A stretch of DNA of 41,069 nt from a virus, in the IMG/VR virus record IMGVR_UViG_3300045988_157337, positions 1-41,069 of that record; one strand, given 5' to 3'. The notes below the pieces were generated by a model, which had not been told where the DNA came from, made no database searches, and saw only the letters and a program-made list of their open reading frames with translations. A program made the position numbers and the translations under genes. Positions 5,364 to 41,069 of the stretch are shown here, in pieces. The first letter of the stretch is position 1. Each line of letters starts with the position of its first letter.

Positions 5364-8300
5364 ATCGCCTCTCTCACTACTCTCACGGCCTCGGTCCGGG
5401 CGGCGGCCCGCACCTGTTCTCCTGTCCACGGGTTCTCCACGATGGCCGTCACGTGGATCGTGGGGGCCCCTGGAGTGGACGTTGAGGCGTTCGCGCCGCC
5501 CGATGCGTACGCCACGGCGCCTGGCGGGATGTAGGCGCCGCCGAAGATGTCAGCGATGCGCGATAGGATCTGCTCGCTCCTCCGCCTCTTCCCGCGCGCT
5601 AGGGGGATGTACCCCTCGCCTCCGGTTTCGGGCTCGGCCCATACGCGGAATGCTCCGGCGGGGGCGATCTGCGCGACGTGGTCCTCCGTCTTCCGAGCAT
5701 TGAGCCCACCGGAGCTGTAGAAGGCGAGCACGGACCCGTCCTTCTGCGCCGACCCGGAGGGGCCCCCGCTCTGCGTGTAATTCCCACGGATGTTCACGTT
5801 GAACGTGATGCCGTCCCACTGCGCGCGCAGGTTGTTCATGATGCCGCTCACGTAGTCGTTGGCGCGGATGTTCACGTACGGGTGGTAGTCGCCGATAGCG
5901 GCCTTGATGTCCGCCAGCTTCGCGTTCGCCGCCTCGTTGTTCCCGTCGATCGTGATAGTCCCGGTTGACTGGTCGATCTCCCCCAGGGCCGCGACCATCT
6001 GCGCGACCGCTGGGTCCTTGTTAGCGTCGATCGTGATAGTCCCGTCCTGGTTCTGCACGTACCCGAGCGTTTCGAGGACGGTGCTTATCGCGCTGTCGTT
6101 CGTGGCGTTCACGGTGATCGTCCCGCCGGTCTGGGACTGGATGTAGGAGATGAAGGCGTCGACGTCGGCCTGCGCCGGCAGGGTGTTCGCCACCACCTGC
6201 GTGTCCACGTTCGCCGGTATCAGGTGCAGCTTGTCCGCGAGCGCGTTCGCCTCGTCAGATGACAGGCCCATGGCCTGTGCAACGGCGACGAAGTTGTCTC
6301 GGGTGGTTTGCAGGGCGCCCTGCATCTCCGCGATTGTCGCCCCGTTCTTCTGCATCGACTCCACGAGCTTCCATCCGGATCTCGCGAGGTCGTCGAGGGC
6401 CGCTTGGTTGTTCCGCCCGGCCTCGGTGGTGATGTCGAGCGTTTGTCCATTCTTCAGCACTGCGGCGTTCGCGTCGTCGATGGCGTCGTAGAGGTCGCGC
6501 CAGGATCCGCGTTCTCCGAGGACGATGTTCTGCAGGTCCTCCTGTGCCTTGATGAGCTTCTCCACTGCGTTGACCTGCTCGTCGACGGCGTTGGTGGCCT
6601 CCTGGGCTGCTCCTGCGAGCTTCCCCTGTGCGTCCGCGTTCTTGAGGCCGGCCTCGGCTGCAAGGTCGTTCTTCTGCTTCGCCTGGTCGAGGGCGCCGAT
6701 CTGCTCCTCTAGACCCTTCTTCGCATCCCCGTACGCTACGGCCAGATTGGTTTTCTCCACGCTCCTCGGCATGTCCTCGTAGGCCTTGAAGACCGCCTGG
6801 ACGCGGTCGAGGGCCTCTGACGATCCAGCGGCGGCGTCGACGAAGTCCTTGACGGAGCCTCCGAGTTCCTTGAAGCCTTTGATCGCGTTGCGGCCGGTTC
6901 CGTTGGAGGCGAATCCCATATCCATGTTCTGGGACAGCTTCTCGAAGACCTTGGTGCGGGTGGCCTCTGTAGCCGCTCCGGTTACGGTGTCGAGCGTGCC
7001 CCGGTACTCCTCCGCCAACTGTGTAGCCCTCTTCTGCGCAGCGGAATACGCTCCCAGGGCGGCGGTTAGGGCGGCGATTCCAGCGGTGGCGGCAAGCCCC
7101 CAGGGGCCGCCGAAGGCGCCGAGGAGCGCGGTCCCCACGCCGCGGGCCGCGCCTCCGATGCCTGTGAGGACTGGGGTGACGGCCTGGCCGAGAGCGCTGA
7201 TGCTCGACGAGCCAACGGTTCGGGCGGAGACGAAGGTGAGCCCGAAGTCGCGGATGCCCGCGCCGGTGGTCTTCAGGCCGGAGAGGATGTCGGAGAAACC
7301 GGTGGAGATGCGGGTGATGAAGGGGATGCTGCCGTTCAGGGAGGAGAGGGCCTGCCTCACCTCGACGATGGAGGAGAAGATCTTCATGCCCGCGCCTGCG
7401 GCGAGGGTGGCGGCGGAACCGAAGGCGAGGATGCCTAGTGCTCCTTGCTGCACGGGTCCGGGGAGGGCCGAGAATGCGTTGACGGCCTTCTCGGCGAATT
7501 GCACGATGGTGCGGAGAAAGTCGTTGCCGCCCGAACCGGATTTGATGAAGAGGGTCTCAAAGGATCCTCCGAGGCGCTCCACGTCCCCCGCGAGATTGTC
7601 CATCCTGGTCTGCGCTGTCTCCGACGCGTATCCCGCGTCGTTGACATTGTCGATCCAGCGCTGTATGCCCTCGGCGCCCTCCTTGTAGAGGACGTTCGCC
7701 GCGCGGATCGCGTCCTGGCCGAACATCTTCTTCATCTTCGCTTGACGGTCCTCGTCCGTCAGCTTCGACAGCTTGCTGTGCAGGAGGCCGGCGTACTGGG
7801 CTAGGCCGATGAACTTCCCTTGGGAGTCGTAGGCCTTGATCCCCAGCTCGTCCATGACGTTCGCAGCCGCCTTGGACTGCGGTGTCAGGTTAAGGAGCAT
7901 GGTCTTGAAGCTGGTGCCGGCGTCGGAGCCGAGGAGGCCGGCGGAGGCGAAGGCGGCGAGGGCGCCGGTCGTCTCCTCGATCGACAGTCCGGTCTGGGAG
8001 GCGACGAGGCCCGACTGCTTGAGCGCCATCCCGAGGTCCTGCACGTCCCCCATCGCCTTCCCCGCGCCAGCGGCGAGGAGGTCGGCGACGTGGGCCATGT
8101 CCGAGCCTTTGAGGCCGAACTGGACGAGGGCGACGGAGGCTATGCCCGCTGCCTCAGCGACACCCAGGCCTCCTGCGGCTGCCAGGTCGAGGGCGCCGGT
8201 GAGGCCTCCGTCGAGGATGTCGGCCGTCGACACGCCCGCCTTCGCGAGCTCCTCGATGGCCCCGGCGGCCTCGGACGCGCTGTACGCGGTGTCGGCGCCC

Positions 8301-14056: not shown

Positions 14057-14174
14057 GGTTTTCGTTCTCCTTCGTCCGAATCGCTCGGGGTCGGGTTGGT
14101 GGGCCGTCGCGGCCCGGGTTGTGTGTGCCCGGCGCGTCCTGCGTCGGGTCGCTTGCGTGTAGCCCCTTCTGTTC

Positions 14175-15407
14175 TCAGTGGGCCATGCGGAGGAGGCGGC
14201 GCATCTCCGTGAGTTCTCCTCGGGCCGCGACGGCCGCGTAGTAGCGGGCCTCGACCTGGGCCGCGATCTGCGGCGTGAGGGGCGTCTCCTGCGCGCCGAT
14301 GCGCGTCCCGCCGTGCCTCTCCTGCGCGCGGCTGCTGTACGGGTTCCTCCCCGCCAGGACGTCCTGCCAGTCGCGGGCCGCCTCACGGACGCGGCGCTGC
14401 GCGGCCGTCTCGCTCGTGCTGGCCTGCCCTGTCTGCTGCCCGTGCAGGGATCCGGTGGGGACCTGCCCGCCTGGGAGGATGTACCCTTGGTCGCGCAGGG
14501 CGCGGATGGCGTCCTCGCGCTTGGGATTGAGCCTGTAGATCGTGTCGGGCGTCATGCGGCGCTGGCCGCGTTGGAGAGTGGTCGAGGCGTGTCCACGGCG
14601 CGTGCCCTCGCGGGTGAAGGGATCGCCGGGGGACCGCATGCCCCGGCGCGCGTTCACGACCTGCCCCATGTCGGCGCCGTCACGGATCGCGCGGGCTGCG
14701 GCCCGGCCGAAGACCCTGTCCTGCTCAGCCTCGGAGAGGTCATTGAACGCCTGGTAGGGGTCGTCGATGAGTCCATGGGCGAACGCCTCGGCCTGGCTGG
14801 TGACCAGGGTGGGGACGTGGATGCAGTCGCAGCGCGGATGTCGCTGGAATCCTTGGTTCCAGCGGAAGAACTTCCCGGCTAGGATCATGCACCTGCTGCA
14901 CGATGGAGGATTCAGCATCCGCACGTACCCGGTGCGGGGTCGGGCTGCGATGCCGACGGACGCTGCGGCCCGTCCGGCGTCGGCGACTGCGGTGGTGATG
15001 AGCATCGTCAACTGGGATCCGGCTGCCCGCATTGCTGCGTTGGTGGCCCAGCCGTCCCCTATCAGCTCCTTCGCCCGCACGGCTGGCGAGTAGAGGAGGC
15101 CCTGGAGCGCCCGTCCGTCCCCCGCTGCGCCCGCGACCGCTGTTGGGTCTGGTATGCCAGTGGGCGGCGCCCACGCGCCCTGAGCGGCGAGGGCGAGGGG
15201 AGCGGACATGACTGCGGATTCGGCGGCTGTGCGCTGCGCTGTGGCGACGGCGCTGACGACGTCCGCCAGGCCCTCCTCCCAGGTCTCGCTGATCCAGTCG
15301 GGGGATACCCGGTGCCAGGCGCGGCGACCTACGGCCGCGGCCGCGGCCTGTGCCCGTAGGACCCGCCGGTAGTGGTGGATTGATGCGTCAGGGAGCGCGG
15401 TCGGCAT
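14175..15407 (-). CDS. MuF-like / SPP1 gp7-like minor head (head morphogenesis) protein
   Basis: 410 aa. Contains the conserved Cys cluster CSRCMILAGKFF...HPRCDCIH. Follows the portal gene. Confidence 0.75.
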   Translation of the reverse strand: MPTALPDASIHHYRRVLRAQAAAAAVGRRAWHRVSPDWISETWEEGLADVVSAVATAQRTAAESAVMSAPLALAAQGAWAPPTGIPDPTAVAGAAGDGRALQGLLYSPAVRAKELIGDGWATNAAMRAAGSQLTMLITTAVADAGRAAASVGIAARPRTGYVRMLNPPSCSRCMILAGKFFRWNQGFQRHPRCDCIHVPTLVTSQAEAFAHGLIDDPYQAFNDLSEAEQDRVFGRAAARAIRDGADMGQVVNARRGMRSPGDPFTREGTRRGHASTTLQRGQRRMTPDTIYRLNPKREDAIRALRDQGYILPGGQVPTGSLHGQQTGQASTSETAAQRRVREAARDWQDVLAGRNPYSSRAQERHGGTRIGAQETPLTPQIAAQVEARYYAAVAARGELTEMRRLLRMAH

Positions 15408-16783: not shown

Positions 16784-18421
16784 TTACCAGGTGAATGCGA
16801 TGGGGCCGCTGTCGTCCCATCCCTCTGCGTGCTCGTCCGCCGCTGCCTCGTGCGCGAGGACGTCGGCCATGAGCACGTCGATCTTCATGTGCTCGGCGGG
16901 CTTGCCCAGGATGTACTTGTCTCCGGGTTTGGCCACTCGGCGGGCGTGGAGGGCGTGGGTTTTCGCTGTTTCATCCCTCGTGTGGGTGGTGAGGCCCTCG
17001 GCGAGGTCCTCCCTGTAGCGGGTGAGGGCGGCGAACATCCGTTGGATGCTGTTGGTCGGCCATTGCACGACGACGTCGTCGCCGTACAGGGTTTCCCAGT
17101 GGTCGATCTGGGTCTCCCAGTGTCGGGGGTCGCAGTAGAAGCGTTGGACGTCGTAGCGGTCCATGATCTCGGCTACGGCGGCTTCCACTTCTCCGCGTGG
17201 GATCCGTCCGTCTGGCCATGCTTGGGGGTCCCACACGGTGTCGCGGCGGTCGGGGCCGTAGGTGGGGGTGAAGCGGAGGCCGTTGACTGTTTCGGCGCGG
17301 ATTGCGGTCCAGTCGCCGGAGCGGGAGCCGTCGAAGCCGAGGGTGATCTCGGCTCCGTCTTCGGGCTGCTCGTCCCGTGTAGCCCCCTCCCACACCTTCT
17401 CCGACAGGTACGATCCCTTGCCCTGCACGAGGCGGTTCCCGAAGAACCTCTCTGCCTGCGTCGGGTCGCGCTCCATGAGCTCGTCCGCCTCCGCATCGAT
17501 CGCCTTGGGATCGACCCACGGGCTGGAGGCGTAGACGAAGCGGTGGATCTTCGACCTGTCCGCCTTCTTCGAGTAGTCCCACTCCAGTGGTGGGCGCTCG
17601 TAGAAGCGGAAGATGTCCCGGACACGGGCCTGGTAGGTCTGCTGAGCGCTGCTGTTCTCCATCGGGTCCCACGGGTTCGTAAGCTCGATGGTGCGACCCT
17701 GCATGCCTGCGACGGCGCGGCGGATCGTGTGCCACGTCGTCATGACCCCGGACTGCTCCGTGTACAGGCCGGACTCGTCCGCGATTGCCGCGGTGAAGGG
17801 CTGCCCGAGCTTCGACCTTGATGCCGATGTGACCGGCACGATCTTCCCGCCGTTCGGCAGACGGATGAATCCCTCGCGGACGTGGACGAAGTCGCTGAGG
17901 GGCCCGCCCGCGATCATCGTCTGCAAGGGCTCGTACACGTTCCGCGTCTGGTCCTCGGCGAAGGCGAGGAGGGCGATCAGCGACTTCGTCCGCGGCGCGC
18001 CCATCGCCTCGCCGGGCTCGTACTCCCTCTCCCACCCGCACCCGCACCCGTGGTCGCTGCACCTGTAGACCTCGCCGCCCCGCGCCCATCCGGCGAAGAT
18101 GGTGGGGCCGACGCCCTCAGCCAGCGCGTCAGCGGCCGCCAGCGGCGACTTCCCCGACTTCTGCGGGCCAACCCACAGGCTGCGCCGGTAGTAGAAGGGT
18201 GCGACGAGGCGCGTTGGATCTGGCTTCGCATTCGCCTTCACCCTGTAGTGGTTGGCGTTGCAGTACAACTGCCAACCATTCAGCTCCAGGGGCTGGTCGA
18301 AGTAGACGCCGGAGGGGACCCGGCAGTGCTGCTCGATCCAGTCGGTGACGAGGAAGCCGAGGGTGTGCAGGGGGTTGAAGTCGAGGACGAGTGGCGCGGG
18401 CGCGAACTCATCCTCGGCCAC
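16784..18421 (-). CDS. Terminase large subunit
   Basis: 545 aa. Walker A-like motif GPQKSGKS, with a C-terminal nuclease-type region. Confidence 0.9.
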   Translation of the reverse strand: MAEDEFAPAPLVLDFNPLHTLGFLVTDWIEQHCRVPSGVYFDQPLELNGWQLYCNANHYRVKANAKPDPTRLVAPFYYRRSLWVGPQKSGKSPLAAADALAEGVGPTIFAGWARGGEVYRCSDHGCGCGWEREYEPGEAMGAPRTKSLIALLAFAEDQTRNVYEPLQTMIAGGPLSDFVHVREGFIRLPNGGKIVPVTSASRSKLGQPFTAAIADESGLYTEQSGVMTTWHTIRRAVAGMQGRTIELTNPWDPMENSSAQQTYQARVRDIFRFYERPPLEWDYSKKADRSKIHRFVYASSPWVDPKAIDAEADELMERDPTQAERFFGNRLVQGKGSYLSEKVWEGATRDEQPEDGAEITLGFDGSRSGDWTAIRAETVNGLRFTPTYGPDRRDTVWDPQAWPDGRIPRGEVEAAVAEIMDRYDVQRFYCDPRHWETQIDHWETLYGDDVVVQWPTNSIQRMFAALTRYREDLAEGLTTHTRDETAKTHALHARRVAKPGDKYILGKPAEHMKIDVLMADVLAHEAAADEHAEGWDDSGPIAFTW

Positions 18422-19697: not shown

Positions 19698-20057
19698 TTA
19701 GCCGCCTGCGTCCTGTTGGAGTTGTACGATCGCCTGGTGCGCCCGGTGGTAGTCGTCGTCGTATCCGGGCTGTGGGGTGATCGCGTCTCGGCGTTCCATG
19801 ATGCGGAGGACTGTCTCCGCTGCCTTCTGGTCGCCCTGTAGGACCTGCGGCCATAGCTGCCGCTGCATGGTGTTGAGGCGTTGTGCTTCTAGGGCTGGGT
19901 CTGTGGTGGTGTCCGCGTTGCGGAGGGCGGCGGCGATGTCGCGGCGGGTTTGTGTGGGGGTGGTGCCGAGTTTGTCTGCGATTTGTGTGGCGGTGAGGCC
20001 GGCGGCGCGGAGGTCGAGGGCGCGGCGTCGGCGGTCTTCCACGTCTTTGTTCGCCAT
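19698..20057 (-). CDS. HTH DNA-binding protein (sigma-70 region 4 / LuxR-like helix-turn-helix) at the head of the late genes
   Basis: 119 aa with motif ALDLRAAGLTATQIADKLGTT. Confidence 0.6.
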   Translation of the reverse strand: MANKDVEDRRRRALDLRAAGLTATQIADKLGTTPTQTRRDIAAALRNADTTTDPALEAQRLNTMQRQLWPQVLQGDQKAAETVLRIMERRDAITPQPGYDDDYHRAHQAIVQLQQDAGG

Positions 20058-27221: not shown

Positions 27222-28015
27222 TGCTCGCCCCCGGGGGCGAGGTAGCGCTCGAGGAAGTAGCGCTGGCCCTTCCCCGTGACTTTCGGGGTGCGGCTCACCG
27301 TGGTGTGCCCGTCCGGGTGCGTGACCGTGGTCTCCTTCACCTGGAAGAGTCCGGCTTCCATGCTTCTTTGGGTGGGCATGTTCCAGTCGGCGCCGCGCCT
27401 GCGGATGAGGTACCCGTCGGCGCGGAGGCGCGCGAACAGGCGGTTGGCGCCCACGTCGACGCCGTTCTGCCGCAGCAGCTTCGCCAGGTCCCCCACGAGG
27501 ATGCTCGTGTGGGAGGCGGCGACGGCGTCGGCGAAGAGGACCTTCCCGCGGTCGGCCTCGATCTTCGCTTTGGCGTGCCCGAGTTCGGTTTCGGCTTCGG
27601 CGGCGCGCTGCTGGGCGGCGTCGAGGGTGCGCTGGGCTTCGATGAGGGCGGCGGCCATGAGTTCCGGGCCCGTGAGGGCGGGGCGCGCCTGGTAGGAGCC
27701 GGTGCGGCGGATCTCGGGGAGGACCTCGTGGGTGACCCACCGCTTGAAGGCCTGTGCCGCCGTGGTCCGGGATCCGAGGATCGCCGTGTAGAGGCCGGCC
27801 TCGGAGATTACGGTCATTGCCTGGGGGCCGCCGGGGGTACGCACTTCGCGCGTACCCTTCTCGTCGTCGTCGAGGCGGCGTGTCATGTCGGACGCCATGC
27901 GGTATCTGAGGATGCACGCCACGTCGGAGGCGACGAACCAGGGGTCGCCGGTGGGGTCGATGTGGACGCGGACACGAGTTATGCCGAACTTGTAGGTGGT
28001 GACGGTGCCGTTCAT
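27218..28015 (-). CDS. Antirepressor (Bro-N domain plus KilAC/ANT-like C-terminal domain)
   Basis: 265 aa from the ATG at 28015 (ATGA overlap). Bro-N signature FGITRVRVHIDPTGDPWFVASDVACIL. The C-terminal part, VGDLAKLLRQNGVDVGANRLFARLRADGYL, is typical of KilAC. Confidence 0.75.
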   Translation of the reverse strand: MNGTVTTYKFGITRVRVHIDPTGDPWFVASDVACILRYRMASDMTRRLDDDEKGTREVRTPGGPQAMTVISEAGLYTAILGSRTTAAQAFKRWVTHEVLPEIRRTGSYQARPALTGPELMAAALIEAQRTLDAAQQRAAEAETELGHAKAKIEADRGKVLFADAVAASHTSILVGDLAKLLRQNGVDVGANRLFARLRADGYLIRRRGADWNMPTQRSMEAGLFQVKETTVTHPDGHTTVSRTPKVTGKGQRYFLERYLAPGGEQ

Positions 28016-32058: not shown

Positions 32059-33023
32059 CGCCGATCCCCCTCCCCGTCGCGGCTGGACTGGGGCCACACG
32101 TCGGCGACGACGCGAGCCTCCCGCACGCTGTCCCAGTGCTCCAGGGCGCACTGCCCCGAAGCACACTCGCAGAGGGCGTCAACGGGGACAGTGACCTCGT
32201 GGACGCTGATGTCACCCCCGACATGGTTGGCGGCGAGGGCGGGGGCCGGGTGCAGTGTGACGCGCATGCCGCGCGCCTGCAGGCGCTCCGCCTGCGCGGC
32301 GAGCGTCTCGCCCCGCGTTATTGCGTAGAGGCGGACCTCGCCCTTGTCGTCAATGGGGACGAGGTAGTCGGCGCACCACGCCCGCGCGGTGTACGCCCCC
32401 GCCTTCGGCACCCTGATCTGGATGCCGCTGCACACGGTGACTGTGTCGTCGTGGATGTAGACGACGACCATGGGGCCGGCCTCCACCTCCACGGCGTCGT
32501 ACGCGTGTACGCACACCGTGCCAGTCGCACGGACTTTCACGTTCCCGTAGGCGATGATGGTGGCGTTTCCCGTAGCTTCCACGATCGCCCACTGGTCGGC
32601 GATCACACGGACGAGGTCGTCCGCCGCGGCGTGAGACCAGTCCATGGCTGTCATGACAGCGCTGCCCTTGCCGTACAGGGTCGCGCCGTGCGCGGCGGAC
32701 GCGGCGCTGACATCGCGCACGTACCCCACTGACGAGTCCTCGGCGCGCAGGAACCCGCGGCCGAGAGAACAGACTTCAGCGGTGTCCTCCGACTCGATGT
32801 ACGCGCCCTCGGACAGGACGCTGGTGTTATCCCGCGCAGTGAGGCGCGCGGCGCCTCGCGCGTAGACTGAGGTATCGCCCACGACGTACACGTCCTTGCC
32901 GTGTGTTCCCCGTATCTCGATCCGACGTTTGGAGTCAACGATGATTTCGTCGTCTTTGGTGATCGCGGGGTCCGCGAGCGCCGCCTCGAGGGCTCCCACG
33001 GTCTTGCAGACAATTTCAGTCAT
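32055..33023 (-). CDS. Hypothetical early protein with beta-solenoid-like internal periodicity
   Basis: 322 aa from the ATG at 33023, preceded by AAGGAGGAGGAG. Contains repetitive short segments rich in V/A/G/T/D/S. Confidence 0.6.
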   Translation of the reverse strand: MTEIVCKTVGALEAALADPAITKDDEIIVDSKRRIEIRGTHGKDVYVVGDTSVYARGAARLTARDNTSVLSEGAYIESEDTAEVCSLGRGFLRAEDSSVGYVRDVSAASAAHGATLYGKGSAVMTAMDWSHAAADDLVRVIADQWAIVEATGNATIIAYGNVKVRATGTVCVHAYDAVEVEAGPMVVVYIHDDTVTVCSGIQIRVPKAGAYTARAWCADYLVPIDDKGEVRLYAITRGETLAAQAERLQARGMRVTLHPAPALAANHVGGDISVHEVTVPVDALCECASGQCALEHWDSVREARVVADVWPQSSRDGEGDRR

Positions 33024-36565: not shown

Positions 36566-36608
36566 TGGGCCCCACCCCCTAGCTCCAGTGGCCGGGGGGT
36601 GGGGCCCA
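36566..36608 (+). other. 14-bp perfect stem-loop immediately upstream of the 36614 gene
   Basis: tgggccccaccccc (36566..36579) pairs with gggggtggggccca (36595..36608), leaving a 15-nt loop. Confidence 0.6.
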
Positions 36609-36613
36609 CAACC

Positions 36614-37066
36614 ATGCGCAAAGGAGAAGATGTGATAACGATCATGTGCCCGGGGCGGATGACGGGCGCGGAGGTGACGGCGGCGCGTGAGGCCCTGGGC
36701 CTCACCACCGCGGAGTTCGCCGCCCTCGCGGGCGTCCACCCGCAGACGCCGCACAGGTGGGAGGCCGGCCGCGAGCCCGCGCCTGTGCGGATCGGGGGGC
36801 TGCTCGCGGATCTCGCCCGCGAGCACGACGACCTGGTCGACCTCCTGGTTGAGCGCACCGACGACGTCCGCGCCGACTACGCGGCGGTGGTGGTGCCCCG
36901 CACCAAGGAGGAGTACGCGGCACTCTGCCCGGACGCGAGTCGGCCCCTGCACTGGCTGCGCCTCGCCGCCTCCCGCGCCGCCAGCCAGGCCCCGCGCCTG
37001 CGCATAGTGCGGGACGCGGACGAGGCCGCGCGCCTGGGAGCGCAGGTGATCCACCCATCCATATGA
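36614..37066 (+). CDS. XRE-family HTH protein
   Basis: Candidate starts are ATG 36614, GTG 36632 (5 nt after AAGGAG) and ATG 36644. HTH LGLTTAEFAALAGVHPQTPHRWEAGRE. Confidence 0.65.
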   Translation: MRKGEDVITIMCPGRMTGAEVTAAREALGLTTAEFAALAGVHPQTPHRWEAGREPAPVRIGGLLADLAREHDDLVDLLVERTDDVRADYAAVVVPRTKEEYAALCPDASRPLHWLRLAASRAASQAPRLRIVRDADEAARLGAQVIHPSI

Positions 37067-37176: not shown

Positions 37177-37854
37177 ATGAGCACCATCGAAATCACCATC
37201 ACCGAGACCAGCCGCGGCAGGATCGCCGTCACCACCCCCTACAGCCCCGAGTTCGTGGCGTCTGCGAAGCGCCTGGGCGGCCGCTGGGCCCCCAAGAGCC
37301 ACGCCTGGACGTTCGACCTCCGCGACCGCGCCCGGGTCGAGGACATCCTCACCCAGTGCTTCGGGTGGGTGGCTGCACCCTCGGGCGAGCTCGCCACCGT
37401 CCGAGTCACCATCGACGACGGGGCCGGGAACGCCCCCGAGGTGCGATTCGCCGGCCGACCCATCTGTTGGAGGAGGGGCCGCGACGAGTCCGTGCGCCTC
37501 GCTGACAACGTCGTCATCGTCGCCGGCCACTTCCCCGGCTCCGGCGGATCCATGCGCCGGCCCCTGGTCATTTCTGCTCCCTCCGACGCGGAGGTGACCC
37601 TCGAGGTCAGGGACGTCCCGGTCGAGGGCCTGGCAGCTGAGGACTCGTCCCGGTGGGACTCGCTCCGGTGGGAGCGGGTCGACGCGGGCGGGGCCGCGCA
37701 GCGCGACGCCCTGGTCGCCGAGCGCGAGCGCCTCCAGTCCCGCCTGTCCGAGATCGACGCGATCCTCGCCGCCGCCGACTGCCCCCCCGGGCCCCGCCCC
37801 CAGCCTGGGGGCGGGGCCCCACCTCACAGGAGAGGAGACAGAAATGCACACTGA
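37177..37854 (+). CDS. Hypothetical protein with N-terminal AK.LGGRW...W motif (DUF5710-like by recollection)
   Basis: 225 aa. ATG preceded by ATAGGAGGG. N-terminus VTTPYSPEFVASAKRLGGRWAPKSHAWTF. Confidence 0.6.
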   Translation: MSTIEITITETSRGRIAVTTPYSPEFVASAKRLGGRWAPKSHAWTFDLRDRARVEDILTQCFGWVAAPSGELATVRVTIDDGAGNAPEVRFAGRPICWRRGRDESVRLADNVVIVAGHFPGSGGSMRRPLVISAPSDAEVTLEVRDVPVEGLAAEDSSRWDSLRWERVDAGGAAQRDALVAERERLQSRLSEIDAILAAADCPPGPRPQPGGGAPPHRRGDRNAH

Positions 37855-38767
37855 TATCACGGTCGAGCTGACCAATATGGTGGGCGACGGGGGCGCCGTC
37901 GTGGTTCCCGCCACCGAGGTCGAGGACGTCCTAGACCAGTGGTTCCCACCCGACGACCGGGCCGCGGATTCCCAGGCCGAGGACGCGGTCTCCACGGTCG
38001 TCCGGTGGGCGCGCGCGCACGACCCCGCCCGCGACGGCGGCGGCATCGTCGAGGCCCTGGCCTACCTCGGCATCAACGCCGAGATGCACACTCCCCCGGC
38101 CCCGCGCCGGCCCGACTACCGGCGGATCCTCACCCGCCGCCAGGTCGAGCGCCTCACCCGCGACCGCCTGCAGGCGGCCCTGGCCGCCACGGGCACCATC
38201 ATCCCCGGCGCGGACACCGAGGTAGTGCGGTTGGCCTACATCCAGGACATCCAGGGCCTGGACGCCATGCGCGCCGCCCTCGCGGCCATGGAGGCCGCCA
38301 CCACCGGGTACGACCCCCGACACAGGGAGCTCGTGCGCCGCTTCACCCTGGCCCACGAGGAGGCGCACGAGCGGTGGCTGGCCCACCGCCAGCAGGTCCT
38401 CGACGGCCGGATCCTGCCCGGCCGCGTCATCGAGGCCATCCGCACCGGCGCGGGCATGAGCCCCGCCGAGTGGGCCGACGCCCTCAGCGTCAGCGAGGGC
38501 ACCGCCCGGGACTGGGAGTCAGGGCGCCGCACGCCCCCCGCCGGGGCCTGCACCGACATGTGGGCAATCTGGCTGCGGTGGGTGAAGACCCAGGCGGCCG
38601 CCCTCGGCACCCCAGCCGCCGTCATCAACCAGCATTGGCGGGAGCCCGTGGCCGTGCTCCCCGCCGACACCCCCCTGCACGATCTCCGGGCCCTGGGGAT
38701 AATGCTCCAGGGCCGACGCTTCACCCTAGACCCAGGCCCGGAGATCCAGCACCCCACCCCCGCGTAA
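37844..38767 (+). CDS. Hypothetical protein with a C-terminal XRE-like HTH
   Basis: 307 aa. ATG preceded by AGGAGAGGAG. HTH GMSPAEWADALSVSEGTARDWESGRRTP. Confidence 0.65.
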   Translation: MHTDITVELTNMVGDGGAVVVPATEVEDVLDQWFPPDDRAADSQAEDAVSTVVRWARAHDPARDGGGIVEALAYLGINAEMHTPPAPRRPDYRRILTRRQVERLTRDRLQAALAATGTIIPGADTEVVRLAYIQDIQGLDAMRAALAAMEAATTGYDPRHRELVRRFTLAHEEAHERWLAHRQQVLDGRILPGRVIEAIRTGAGMSPAEWADALSVSEGTARDWESGRRTPPAGACTDMWAIWLRWVKTQAAALGTPAAVINQHWREPVAVLPADTPLHDLRALGIMLQGRRFTLDPGPEIQHPTPA

Positions 38768-38781
38768 CGGGCACAAGAATC

Positions 38782-38816
38782 GGGGCCCCGCCACACGGTT
38801 CGTGTGGCGGGGCCCC
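38782..38816. terminator. 15-bp perfect stem-loop; candidate bidirectional terminator between the plus-strand module and the minus-strand late operon/array
   Basis: ggggccccgccacac (38782..38796) pairs with gtgtggcggggcccc (38802..38816), leaving a 5-nt loop. Confidence 0.7.
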
Positions 38817-39045
38817 ACCCGCTCTCGCAGGCAATATTCAGTTCCAGCCCTCAGCGCAACCTAGTTAGCGGGTTCATCCCCACGTGAGCGGGGAACACGT
38901 GCACTGGTGCAACACTAACGGTTCATCCCCGCTCGCGCGGGGAACAGTTGGCTAGTTGCAACCCCAAAGGATCATCCCCACTTGCGTGGGGAAAAATTTC
39001 AACTGTGCAATTTCAAGGGCTCACCCCCGCTCTCGCGGGGACACC
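38809..39045 (-). CRISPR. Cas-less type I-E-like CRISPR repeat array: four 29-nt repeats, one degenerate terminal repeat, three 20-nt spacers and one 32-nt spacer
   Basis: Repeats on the plus strand are at 38870..38898, 38919..38947, 38968..38996 and 39017..39045, with a degenerate copy at 38809..38837. The minus-strand form is GTGTTCCCCGC-N4-GCGGGGATGAACCG-like, with a 6-bp stem, 4-nt loop and 8-nt handle. Confidence 0.8.
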
Positions 39046-39066
39046 TGGAGTGTACCACACTCAGGG

Positions 39067-39687
39067 TCAGTGCAGGTAGCGTTTCATCTCGTCAATGTAC
39101 GCCGATGCCTGGCGCTTGGAGAGTGCGCTCACGTCGATGGTGCGGAGCGCCTGCTCTTTAGCGCGGGCTTCGCGGGCTTGGCGAGCGACCGACCTACCCC
39201 ACACTCCACGCATCGCGCGCGTATACGCTAGATCAATGCGCGCTTCCGCTTGCGCGTTCGCTTTGTCCACAGCGTCCTGCTTGGCCCAGTACGCTGCGCC
39301 CTCGGGGGTTTTTATAGCGACCTTCCGGCGCATCCCACGCAGGCTCTCCGGCATCGGGATATCAGGCTTCAGGCTTCCGTCCTTCGTGAGTTTGTCCCTC
39401 ATTCTCTGTGCGGCTTCGTCTCCGGCCCTATCTCGCTCACGGTCTGCCTTCTGCTCGTACACGGACAGGTTGATGCGGTTGCTCTTGTCCTCCGCTTCGG
39501 ACGCTGTCCACGCGCGGGGCAGCGGATGCTGGTTGGCGGCCTCCTGCATTTTCTTCATGTACTCGACCTGCCGGGGTGTGGCTGCGCCGCCCTCGGCAGG
39601 ACCCAGGCCAAGATCTTCGGGGGTCGGCGCAGCGCTGCCTCCCCCGCCACCCCCGCCGCTGTGGCTGCTACCGCCTCGTCCACCCAT
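39067..39687 (-). CDS. Hypothetical protein with Gly-rich N-terminus and charged helical body
   Basis: 206 aa with the ATG verified. Lies immediately upstream (in transcription order) of the repeat array. Confidence 0.6.
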   Translation of the reverse strand: MGGRGGSSHSGGGGGGGSAAPTPEDLGLGPAEGGAATPRQVEYMKKMQEAANQHPLPRAWTASEAEDKSNRINLSVYEQKADRERDRAGDEAAQRMRDKLTKDGSLKPDIPMPESLRGMRRKVAIKTPEGAAYWAKQDAVDKANAQAEARIDLAYTRAMRGVWGRSVARQAREARAKEQALRTIDVSALSKRQASAYIDEMKRYLH

Positions 39688-40848: not shown

Positions 40849-41069
40849 CAGGAGTCCGTTCCCTCCTGGATGAGGGTGGGCCTGGCGGTGGGGACGTGGG
40901 CGAGGGCGGTGGTGGTGCTGAGGACGGAGGCGGCCAGGGCTGCCCATAGGGGCGCGGTGGTCTGTCCGATGACGCCGTAGGCGCCGAGCAGTGCGATCGC
41001 GGCGAGGATGACGCCGTAGGCCCAGCGGCGCACCTGGGGGGTGAGCCAGGGGATGGGCTGCGGCGTGGG
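40848..41069 (-). CDS. Holin-like membrane protein, 3' part plus the junction duplicate; the 5' end lies at positions 88..56 of the window
   Basis: Same gene as feature 1..88. The stop is at 40848..40850. Confidence 0.6.
   Translation of the reverse strand, partial: PTPQPIPWLTPQVRRWAYGVILAAIALLGAYGVIGQTTAPLWAALAASVLSTTTALAHVPTARPTLIQEGTDS
41015..41069. repeat. Terminal overlap, identical to 1..55
   Basis: Exact 55-nt identity on direct comparison. Confidence 0.95.

Follow-up and report, generated by a model that had tools for sequence, protein, structure and literature searches.

A mini-array of CRISPR-like units in a human oral phage probably encodes guide RNAs against the promoter at the head of the host's type I-E cas operon

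What use does a phage have for a short series of CRISPR-like repeats whose spacers resemble one another and are mostly too short? The question is raised by IMG/VR virus record IMGVR_UViG_3300045988_157337, which was analyzed over 41,069 nucleotides (hereafter called the window). The window is a phage, with genes for a large terminase, a portal, a tape-measure protein, tail proteins, a holin and a tyrosine integrase. The large terminase is about 51% identical to Arthrobacter phage terminases, and the array region is present in identical copies on the human oral metagenome contigs L070-L072. The window represents a temperate phage from human oral metagenomes. On its minus strand, it contains four type I-E-like 29-nt repeats, three 20-nt spacers and a 32-nt stretch; a fifth repeat, degenerate in sequence, leads into a terminator. 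The features are as follows, in the order in which they would be transcribed.

39057..39049, minus strand: putative extended -10 sequence TGgTACACT, read by eye; the transcript would start at about the first base of R1
39045..39017, minus strand: repeat R1 (psiR1), GGTGTCCCCGCGAGAGCGGGGGTGAGCCC, or GGTGT-CCCCGC-GAGA-GCGGGG-GTGAGCCC, a type I-E-type hairpin followed by an 8-nt 5'-handle
39016..38997, minus strand: spacer S1 (psiS1), 20 nt, TTGAAATTGCACAGTTGAAA, seed class TTGAA
38996..38968, minus strand: repeat R2, TTTTT-CCCCAC-GCAA-GTGGGG-ATGATCCT
38967..38948, minus strand: spacer S2 (psiS2), 20 nt, TTGGGGTTGCAACTAGCCAA
38947..38919, minus strand: repeat R3, CTGTT-CCCCGC-GCGA-GCGGGG-ATGAACCG
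38918..38899, minus strand: spacer S3 (psiS3), 20 nt, TTAGTGTTGCACCAGTGCAC
38898..38870, minus strand: repeat R4, GTGTT-CCCCGC-TCAC-GTGGGG-ATGAACCC
38869..38838, minus strand: spacer S4 (psiS4), 32 nt, GCTAACTAGGTTGCGCTGAGGGCTGGAACTGA
38837..38809, minus strand: degenerate terminal repeat, ATATTGCCTGCGAGAGCGGGTGGGGCCCC, or ATATT-GCCTGC-GAGA-GCGGGT-GGGGCCCC
38817..38781, minus strand: intrinsic terminator between convergent genes, a perfect 16-17-bp stem with a T-rich tail, at which the array transcript would end

The coordinates, the 20-nt spacers with their TT and TTGCA core, the 32-nt stretch, and the degenerate repeat with 19 of 29 matching positions are all as given in a preliminary description of the sequence.

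The gene layout and the terminator hairpin at 38817..38781 place the array downstream of the minus-strand ORF 39067..39687 and between convergent genes, with a terminator at its end. It is flanked in the phage genome by a lysis-region gene on one side and by helix-turn-helix regulator genes on the other. The polarity of the type I-E repeats and the terminator at 38817..38781 point to transcription from the minus strand, presumably from the extended -10 sequence. The block GTGTGGTA(C/T)ACT(C/G)CAGGTGT at the putative array promoter is kept in the related phages L153 and L177, despite a different upstream gene in L177. A scan with the sigma-70 two-hexamer consensus returned no promoter beside the array, so that the promoter at 39057..39049 is put forward as a candidate.

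Searches by overall similarity returned little. Rfam, at gathering and permissive thresholds, placed neither CRISPR-DR nor another credible family in the array. Relatives of the array were not found by megablast with the surrounding 3 kb or by blastn against GenBank phages, and the array was absent from 80 viral loci (at most 50% identity) that were fetched by synteny via the adjacent DUF4417 gene. For the upstream ORF 39067..39687 (called as 163 aa), a single homologue was found; tblastn gave no relative, and there was no match in Pfam, PHROG or NCBIfam.

The periodicity of the array is unambiguous: a period of 49 nt was recovered independently by a repeat finder and by TRF. Each repeat unit begins with 5 nt, continues with a 6-bp stem closed by a 4-nt loop, and finishes with an 8-nt tail, and the type I-E repeat plan GTGTT-CCCCGC-N4-GCGGGG-ATGAACCG fits the units. 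Exact matches to CCCCRC-N4-GYGGGG in the window are confined to the four good hairpins. The repeat hairpin is completely paired in 14 repeats and includes a compensatory change from G-C to A-U; the A-U pair of R2 compensates for the G-C pair at the equivalent position of the other repeats. When the units are aligned to the host repeat GTTTTCCCCGCACGCGCGGGGATGAGCCC, their 6-bp stem proves fully paired and the handle ATGAnCCn/GTGAGCCC is kept. The 3' half of R1, GCGGGGGTGAGCC, is identical to the first repeat-like unit (psiR1) of the host mini-arrays described below.

The degenerate repeat is identical to R1 at 19 of 29 positions, including the run GCGAGAGCGGG, and retains a 6-bp hairpin in register, with two G-U pairs. 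Its 5'-handle is replaced by the stem of the terminator: the last eight bases, GGGGCCCC, are the 5' arm. Since the 3' third of the repeat is a terminator arm, part of the 19/29 match falls in sequence with another job. The terminal repeat is conserved, as had been anticipated, being identical in L153 and having the same beginning in L177. Many other viral mini-arrays are built likewise, with a final repeat that is cut off after the hairpin and then a terminator.

Tandem units with palindromic cores, placed in an intergenic region near helix-turn-helix regulator genes, could also be iterons or operators to which a phage protein binds at the DNA level, in which case their likeness to CRISPR repeats would be coincidental. 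We regard this reading as hardly credible, because the units match the host CRISPR repeat across the hairpin and the 8-nt handle, the stem carries a compensatory change of RNA type and G-U pairs, the array ends in a terminator, and the variable parts match host guides (see below).

We then compared the spacers. S1, S2 and S3 have in common TT at positions 1-2 and TTGCA at positions 7-11, and in all they agree in 8 of 20 columns. When 20-mers were drawn at random from the window in triples, the mean was 1.8 invariant columns, with a probability of about 3e-4 for 8 or more, and the maximum among 132 consecutive triples of real host spacers (from two host arrays) was 5. The shared core exceeds chance.

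The same core is found in related phages. In L153, where a neighbouring protein is 78% identical, there are five repeats, four 20-nt guides, the 32-nt unit, and the degenerate repeat and terminator as in the window. L177 contains three 20-nt guides and the 32-nt unit. Altogether, the length of the short units is exactly 20 nt in 10 of 10 cases from the window, L153 and L177. The preliminary description had proposed that the 20-nt units are parts of functional, duplicated and diverged 49-nt units rather than products of adaptation. The conservation of length and core in L153 and L177 bears this out: since the relatives keep both, they do not show the unrelated spacers of variable length that would have spoken for adaptation.

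A second phage lineage (L024, L032, L154, L155, L159, L170, L185, L187) carries one or two guides of 23-35 nt. Across both lineages, five guide seeds occur, TTGAA, TTGGG, TTAGT, TTAGC and TTGGA, each with TTGCA at positions 7-11; the TTGAA class of S1 is also present in L153, L177 and L185. Seeds are swapped on an unchanged PAM-distal part, as in S3 of the window (TTAGTG-TTGCAC-CAGTGCAC) compared with a unit of L153 (TTGGAG-TTGCAC-CAGTGCAC). The PAM-distal part of the guides is otherwise free to vary among related phages.

The host was approached through CRISPR arrays of its own. Of the spacers in two long metagenomic type I-E arrays (L171 and L190; repeat GTTTTCCCCGCACGCGCGGGGATGAGCC), 23 match the window, each at 29-33 of 33 positions. 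The protospacers in the window are flanked by AAC (9) or AAG (8) in 17 of the 23 cases. These matches and PAM counts identify the CRISPR type of the host and its PAM. Related hosts are Pauljensenia/Actinomyces-like oral bacteria (Actinomycetaceae-like). The window itself contains no cas homologue, cas1-cas2 included, that could be found by tblastn with the proteins of a complete host cas operon. Two host spacers derive from the phage array (window 38905..38937 and 38953..38985); the window copies differ from them at three positions and have no PAM.

Host loci were retrieved from genomes and metagenomes by the I-E handle combined with the pattern TT-N4-TTGCA. Because the retrieval pattern already contained TTRRNNTTGCA after the handle, the similarity of the phage seeds to host guides is partly ascertained; a second copy of the motif, its AAC PAM, and the position beside cas3 were not part of the pattern. 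Most handle-plus-seed matches in the viral, genome and metagenome collections were set aside as chance occurrences in coding DNA or as ordinary CRISPR spacers. The host loci comprised 14 of Pauljensenia type (titled, or flanked like, Pauljensenia hongkongensis) and two of Corynebacterium type.

TTRRNNTTGCA occurs exactly twice in all 16 host loci. In one of its two positions, the motif comes after the handle of a degenerate mini-array with two repeats. The second copy is preceded by AAC in 16 of 16 cases. Its distance from the first is 69-77 nt in the 14 loci of Pauljensenia type; in the two of Corynebacterium type it is found on the other strand, shortly before cas3. The mini-array is located immediately upstream of cas3, cse1 and cse2. 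In the called genes, the stop of cas3 and the start of cse1 overlap, and the two genes have the same direction, with no evident terminator. In L184, a CRISPR array with the same repeat as that of L171, and with one spacer in common, is found 10 kb downstream of the mini-array. At the second copy of the motif, a promoter-like sequence can be seen by eye in every allele, TTGCA(A/T) followed after 16-17 nt by TANNNT, for which the consensus scan gives no confirmation.

CreR and CreA are degenerate mini-CRISPRs with which Cascade represses cas or creT promoters (10.1101/2023.03.10.532045; Shmakov et al., 2023, 10.1101/2023.03.03.530964). The host mini-arrays have the architecture of the CreR type, that is, of a host RNA regulating Cas. 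Such versions are present beside cas3 in L069, L157-L188, L171, L302-L307 and others. In an alignment of seven host loci, the flanks were nearly invariant, and the guide, the second repeat and the promoter cassette were hypervariable. Guide and target vary together, falling into four allele classes, TTGGA, TTGGG, TTAGT and TTAGC, with mismatches at positions 6 and 12. In Cascade, positions 6 and 12 are flipped out. These four host classes account for all but one of the five seed classes of the phages.

The TTGCA core of the phage spacers thus appears to be the -35-like box of the promoter heading the host cas3-cse1 operon, with positions 3-5 conferring allele specificity. This had not been foreseen in the preliminary description. 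The core would be the -35-like box together with the flanking TT, and the spacers would copy the seed of a host CreR-type guide. The resemblance among the "spacers" of some phage mini-arrays may then be explained by their being aimed at variants of one promoter.

Individual guides were compared with host guides and with host promoter sites. S2 is identical at 13 of 14 positions to the AAC-flanked promoter site TTGGGnTTGCAACT, the sole mismatch being the flipped-out position 6, and at 10 of 11 positions to the host guide of the TTGGG class. The site (TTGGG allele) is present in eleven loci (L157, L164, L166, L168, L169, L173, L180, L181, L186, L188, L302). The first 12 nt of S3 are identical to the host CreR guide of L179, L304 and L305 (12/12), and S3 matches the promoter sites TTAGTtTTGCA and TTAGTaTTGCA, each flanked by AAC (TTAGT allele). 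For S1, no AAS-flanked TTGAAnTTGCA site was found in 117 kb of host loci, and none with a PAM in all loci fetched. The allele was also absent from seven further cas3 look-ups, and the loci found contained no host guide for S1.

The 32-nt unit belongs elsewhere. In L307, the Cas3 of which shares 95% identity with the L164 protein, another cassette occupies the equivalent place. Its handle is followed by a 33-nt guide, GCTAACCAGGTGGCGCT... (GCTAACCAGGTGGCGCTTGAGG...), and its AAG-flanked site GCTAATCATGTTGCGCTTGACA overlaps a perfect TTGACA box. S4 (GCTAACTAGGTTGCGCTGAGGG...) is identical to the L307 guide at 16 of its first 17 nt (14 of 15 pairing positions) and fits the AAG-flanked promoter site of L307 at 13 of 15 pairing positions, with mismatches at 7 and 9; no other class-2b site was found. 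The L153 counterpart of S4 (TCTAATCGAGGTGCG...) fits the L171 site TCTAAGCGAGGTGCG, which is flanked by AAC, at 14 of 15 pairing positions; the guide of L171 itself is TCTAAACGAGGCGCG. These two matches indicate that S4 reproduces a host guide of a second class, with the normal length kept. The sites of S2, S3 and S4 overlap or abut the -35-like box upstream of cas3.

With these matches in hand, it can be asked whether the locus is a genuine mini-CRISPR array, with spacers acquired from competing phages or plasmids and with host Cas proteins recruited for interference between mobile elements. Virus-borne mini-CRISPR arrays serving conflicts between viruses do exist in archaeal viruses (Medvedeva et al., 2019, PMC6858448), and here a degenerate repeat comes after a last unit of 32 nt. 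The preliminary description had taken the 32-nt stretch for a canonical acquired spacer and the decayed repeat for a sign of a "real" array. Neither view held up, since the 32-nt stretch is conserved in related phages and copies the L307-class host guide (16/17). A genuine array is very improbable on other grounds as well. The short spacers share 8 of 20 columns and three of the four spacers are 20 nt long; the window has no cas1-cas2 or other cas gene; and a search for protospacers, which had been proposed earlier, found no full-length match to S1-S4 among the fetched sequences of phages, hosts or plasmid-like elements. The partial matches that were obtained do not go beyond the seed and fall on the cas-proximal promoter of the host itself. 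The array shares with virus-borne mini-CRISPRs and canonical I-E arrays the repeat-spacer layout on a virus and the dependence on host Cas proteins, and differs from a canonical I-E array in that its spacers are not unique, acquired sequences of 32-33 nt, in the lack of a full-length protospacer among the sequences fetched, and in the absence of adaptation genes from the window.

Alternatively, the repeats alone might matter. RNA anti-CRISPRs of solitary repeat units (Racrs) are known in phages for most CRISPR types (Camara-Wilpert et al., 2023, PMC10651486). A pure decoy of this kind would tie up Cas6e and Cas7 in dead-end complexes, whatever the sequence of its spacers. Repeat mimicry with intact hairpins, and guides too short for normal Cascade, are as expected for a decoy, and competition for Cas proteins also forms part of the published mechanism of the guide-bearing RNAs discussed next. 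However, both phage lineages keep their seeds within discrete classes and let the PAM-distal parts drift; a host promoter allele beside a valid PAM corresponds to each of four of the five seed classes; and all ten short units measure exactly 20 nt. Since seed classes, allele matches and fixed length would not be expected if the sequence were irrelevant, a pure decoy is improbable. The array resembles Racrs in the phage-encoded mimicry of CRISPR repeats and in a likely competition for Cas6 and Cas7; unlike the guide-free Racrs, it has conserved, allele-specific seeds that match a host promoter. The earlier proposal that Cascade loads the short RNAs and is thereby inactivated can be kept in part. 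Sequestration is plausible, but the selection on the seeds points to a Cascade reprogrammed as a repressor rather than simply put out of action.

We therefore turn to guide-bearing RNAs that act on host promoters. [quoted passage not shown] The same preprint reports that viral guides are typically shorter than those of the host, that the guides of one array target variants of the same cas promoter, that competition for Cas proteins is part of the mechanism, and that creT-silencing Cracr RNAs occur in type I-F. In a Salmonella prophage, a type I-E Cracr array with guides of 24 and 21 nt represses PcasA and restores T7 infection (bioRxiv 10.1101/2024.10.29.618823).

The locus in the window is probably a Cracr array, that is, a set of phage-encoded crRNA-like regulatory RNAs, and the element is very probably functional. 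Like Cracr arrays, it is carried by a phage, lies amid phage genes outside any CRISPR-cas locus, has several repeat-like units in one transcription unit, and ends in a degenerate repeat. Its units resemble the host repeat in the Cas6 hairpin and the 5'-handle. In the shortened guides, the PAM-proximal part is that of a CreR guide and fits a cas promoter beside a PAM, with different guides suited to different variants. More than nine PAM-proximal nucleotides are in common with a host guide in S3 (12/12), S2 (10/11) and S4 (16/17), and these three also match a PAM-flanked, cas-proximal promoter in part; S1 has neither a host guide nor a matched site among the loci found. S1-S3 are short (20 nt, compared with 33-34 nt in host guides of class 1), and S4 (32 nt) is not shortened.

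The array most likely turns host Cascade against the promoter heading the host's own cas operon. After transcription from the minus strand, host Cas6e would cut each hairpin, giving three 49-nt RNAs (8-nt handle, 20-nt guide, 21-nt hairpin) and one RNA with a 32-nt guide. The RNAs would be loaded into host type I-E Cascade; a 20-nt guide, being 12 nt short, would correspond to two fewer Cas7 subunits. Guides carrying the PAM-proximal seed of the host CreR-type guide would then pair with the AAC- or AAG-flanked promoter at the head of cas3-cse1. As only about 10-14 nt pair, we expect binding without cleavage by Cas3. The promoter would be blocked and immune crRNAs would be outcompeted. Because each guide fits a different promoter allele among host strains, the array can be viewed as a set of keys for a variable lock. 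Silencing of cas would presumably also shield the prophage of a temperate phage that is matched by many host spacers. These steps have been demonstrated for the Salmonella prophage I-E array and for I-F and V-A examples (10.1101/2024.10.29.618823); here, the mechanism is suggested by the repeat mimicry, the identity of seeds with host guides, the partial matches to PAM-flanked promoters, the allele-wise correspondence, and the terminator.

Compared with the CreR/CreA RNAs of the host, the phage RNAs have the same handle, seed and target site, with partial pairing over about 10-15 nt and mismatches tolerated at every sixth position. They differ in being encoded on a phage and not at a cas locus, in having full repeats on both sides of each guide, in being multiplexed, and in the length of the class-1 guides (20 nt in the window, 33-34 nt in the host). 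The array also departs from the published Cracrs. In contrast to the Salmonella example, the host is an oral Actinomycetaceae-like bacterium, and the target lies upstream of cas3 (with cas3-cse1 in one direction) rather than at PcasA. The published arrays have at most three guides; that of the window has four and that of L153 five. The window array also mixes two kinds of guide: three measure exactly 20 nt, and the fourth, at 32 nt, is copied from another class of host guide. This class of RNA anti-CRISPR has been described only in 2023-2026, and the array adds a member to it, not a new class. Slight extensions of the published description are the number of guides, the mixture of 20-nt and 32-nt guides for two cassette classes, the position of the target upstream of cas3, the strain-level hypervariability of the host cassette, and the host spacers taken from the array itself.

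The host promoter need not serve cas genes alone. Class-1 cassettes contain a conserved ORF of 67 aa between the promoter and cas3. In the class-2 cassettes (L171 and L307), a good ribosome-binding site precedes a hydrophobic ORF of 30-31 aa with a basic end, MTFVENVAVVVLGALLQGAVDFFVAKLLRR and MASFWATIIGGILGEAVGAVVAVVVSKLLQR, which again lies before cas3. Because a small ORF is found between promoter and cas3, either this ORF or the cas genes may be the main repressed target in the Pauljensenia-type loci. The 30-31-aa hydrophobic ORF further suggests that class-2 cassettes could be toxin guards of the CreTA type and that S4 could be an anti-suicide guide.

The main task of the same element could accordingly be to keep a Cascade-repressed toxin silent (a CreA/CreT-type guard), and not to shut off cas; this would apply above all to S4. 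If the phage disabled Cascade by other means, the released toxin promoter would kill the cell, and the phage guides would maintain repression. The ORFs behind the targeted class-2 and class-1 promoters, and the creT-silencing Cracr RNAs documented for type I-F, fit such a role. On the other hand, the 67-aa ORF has a weak, sub-threshold likeness to the Ada zinc-binding domain and is without toxin features, the site in the Corynebacterium-type loci is about 45 nt before cas3 with no ORF in between, and cas3 and cse1 follow in the same direction without an evident terminator. Toxin silencing as the main job is possible but rather unlikely. Both the silencing of cas and the silencing of a toxin fall within the definition of Cracr, to which we return as the preferred assignment.

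Cas silencing and toxin guarding may also be combined. As a tentative joint reading, which we consider a real possibility though not the probable one, the head cassette of oral Actinomycetaceae type I-E systems would be a hypervariable lock and key, with at least seven alleles in two classes between near-invariant flanks. Its diversity would be driven by phage mimicry, and the phage arrays would be libraries of alleles. Class-2 cassettes would represent a new, peptide-type CreTA guard for type I-E, in which a membrane-peptide toxin of 30-31 aa is held off by Cascade; the anti-suicide role would fall to S4 and the shutting off of cas to the three 20-nt guides. Hosts would answer by acquiring spacers from the array, which would escape by PAM-distal changes.

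The locus offers a clear natural example, from the human oral microbiome, of phage RNA that appears to copy the guide with which a host regulates its own cas genes. The phage, the host CRISPR arrays, the regulatory cassettes and their alleles can all be aligned from sequence data without further information. The natural pairs of guide and target, with their defined mismatches, could serve as test material for the shortest Cascade guide that binds without cutting.

Finally, when viral contigs were sampled for I-E-like repeats, their spacing was bimodal, with one class at 20-21 nt and another at 32-34 nt and hardly any values in between, although this sample is biased in that it includes 23 loci retrieved with a fixed spacing of 20 nt. 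The short class occurs in arrays of 2-4 repeats. Among loci first retrieved by a scan with open gap, 22 still had short spacers only. For finding such arrays in viral contigs, an exact spacing of 20-21 nt, 12 nt below the normal value, seems to be a practical signature.

Phage arrays of the window's kind were the source of two spacers in host CRISPR arrays, spacer 41 of L171 and spacer 17 of L190, both metagenome loci with type I-E arrays. The counterparts of these two spacers in the window's own array, a probable Cracr array, are:

38905-38937, plus strand
38953-38985, plus strand

L190 spacer 17 agrees with the array copy in L177, a related phage, at 32 of 33 positions, and an AAC PAM flanks that copy. 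The window copies of both array-derived protospacers have 3 mismatches and are without a PAM, because the PAM-distal part of guides S2 and S3 differs. These changes look like escape via the freely variable part of the guide.

The L171 and L190 arrays match 21 further protospacers scattered across the phage genome, 9 of them perfectly (33/33). Together with the two array-derived protospacers this makes 23, of which 17 have an AAC or AAG PAM. Example window protospacers for these arrays are:

187-219
6155-6187
14063-14095
14748-14780
14839-14871
17273-17305
19938-19970
27629-27661
32354-32386

The window carries three further genes around the array:

36599-37066, plus strand: helix-turn-helix protein, convergent with the array
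37844-38767, plus strand: second helix-turn-helix protein, convergent with the array
39067-39687, minus strand: ORF of 163-206 aa just upstream of the array

The first helix-turn-helix protein gave a weak Aca2/YdiL-like Pfam match (E = 0.003). The upstream ORF had no family match in Pfam, PHROG or NCBIfam, and a single homologue. In L070, an oral contig with an identical array region, the gene order is endolysin-like, holin, 164 aa and DUF4417. By this order the holin gene spans the two ends of the window (about 40947-41069 joined to 1-88), and the window thus looks complete, as the circularly permuted form of a genome of about 41 kb.

On the host side, small ORFs precede cas3 in these loci with CreR-type cassettes:

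L171:13624-13716, minus strand: class-2 cassette ORF, 30-31 aa, hydrophobic, strong ribosome-binding site
L307:413-508: class-2 cassette ORF, 30-31 aa, hydrophobic, strong ribosome-binding site
L069:4743-5120, minus strand: class-1 leader and 67-aa ORF (same region in L157-L188 and L302-L305)

The class-2 ORF lies between the Cascade-targeted promoter and cas3, and may encode a small toxic membrane peptide that Cascade controls, a CreTA-like guard in type I-E. In the class-1 loci, the stretch from the targeted promoter to cas3, with its leader of about 170 nt and the 67-aa ORF, is nearly invariant, in contrast to the hypervariable cassette immediately 5' of it. The sole family match of the 67-aa ORF was a sub-threshold one to Ada zinc-binding (E = 0.02).

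Two-repeat mini-arrays also precede cas3 in other oral Actinomycetaceae-type species, whose Cas3 proteins are 58-63% identical:

L309:575-1500: mini-array upstream of cas3
L312-L315:1109-1500: mini-arrays upstream of cas3

Their seeds (GTCGTnTAAGG; ATGCAnTGCAT) are unrelated to the others, and a matching site, here too mismatched at positions 6 and 12, lies nearby.

The array end is altered in one metagenome contig from the window's phage:

L072:6141-6208: full R1-type repeat (…CTGCGAGAGCGGGGGTGAGCCC) in place of the degenerate terminal repeat, then S1 and R2 again, to the contig end

Either recombination of the terminal repeat with R1 has duplicated the array in tandem, or the structure is a join made in assembly.

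I-E-like mini-arrays with 20-21-nt spacers occur in many unrelated viral contigs (L001-L023 and about 22 among L191-L300), with the final repeat truncated after the hairpin and followed by a terminator. The spacers resemble one another within several of these arrays (L006, L009, L010, L022), and some seeds are common to different contigs (TGTTTCA in L001, L005 and L021). They are probably further arrays of the window's kind, for other hosts. In the second phage lineage, a near-consensus promoter (TTGACA, 18 nt, TAGCAT) lies immediately 5' of the first array repeat:

L155:2760-2860: array promoter region (same region in L024, L154, L185 and L187)

This predicted promoter supports independent transcription of such arrays.
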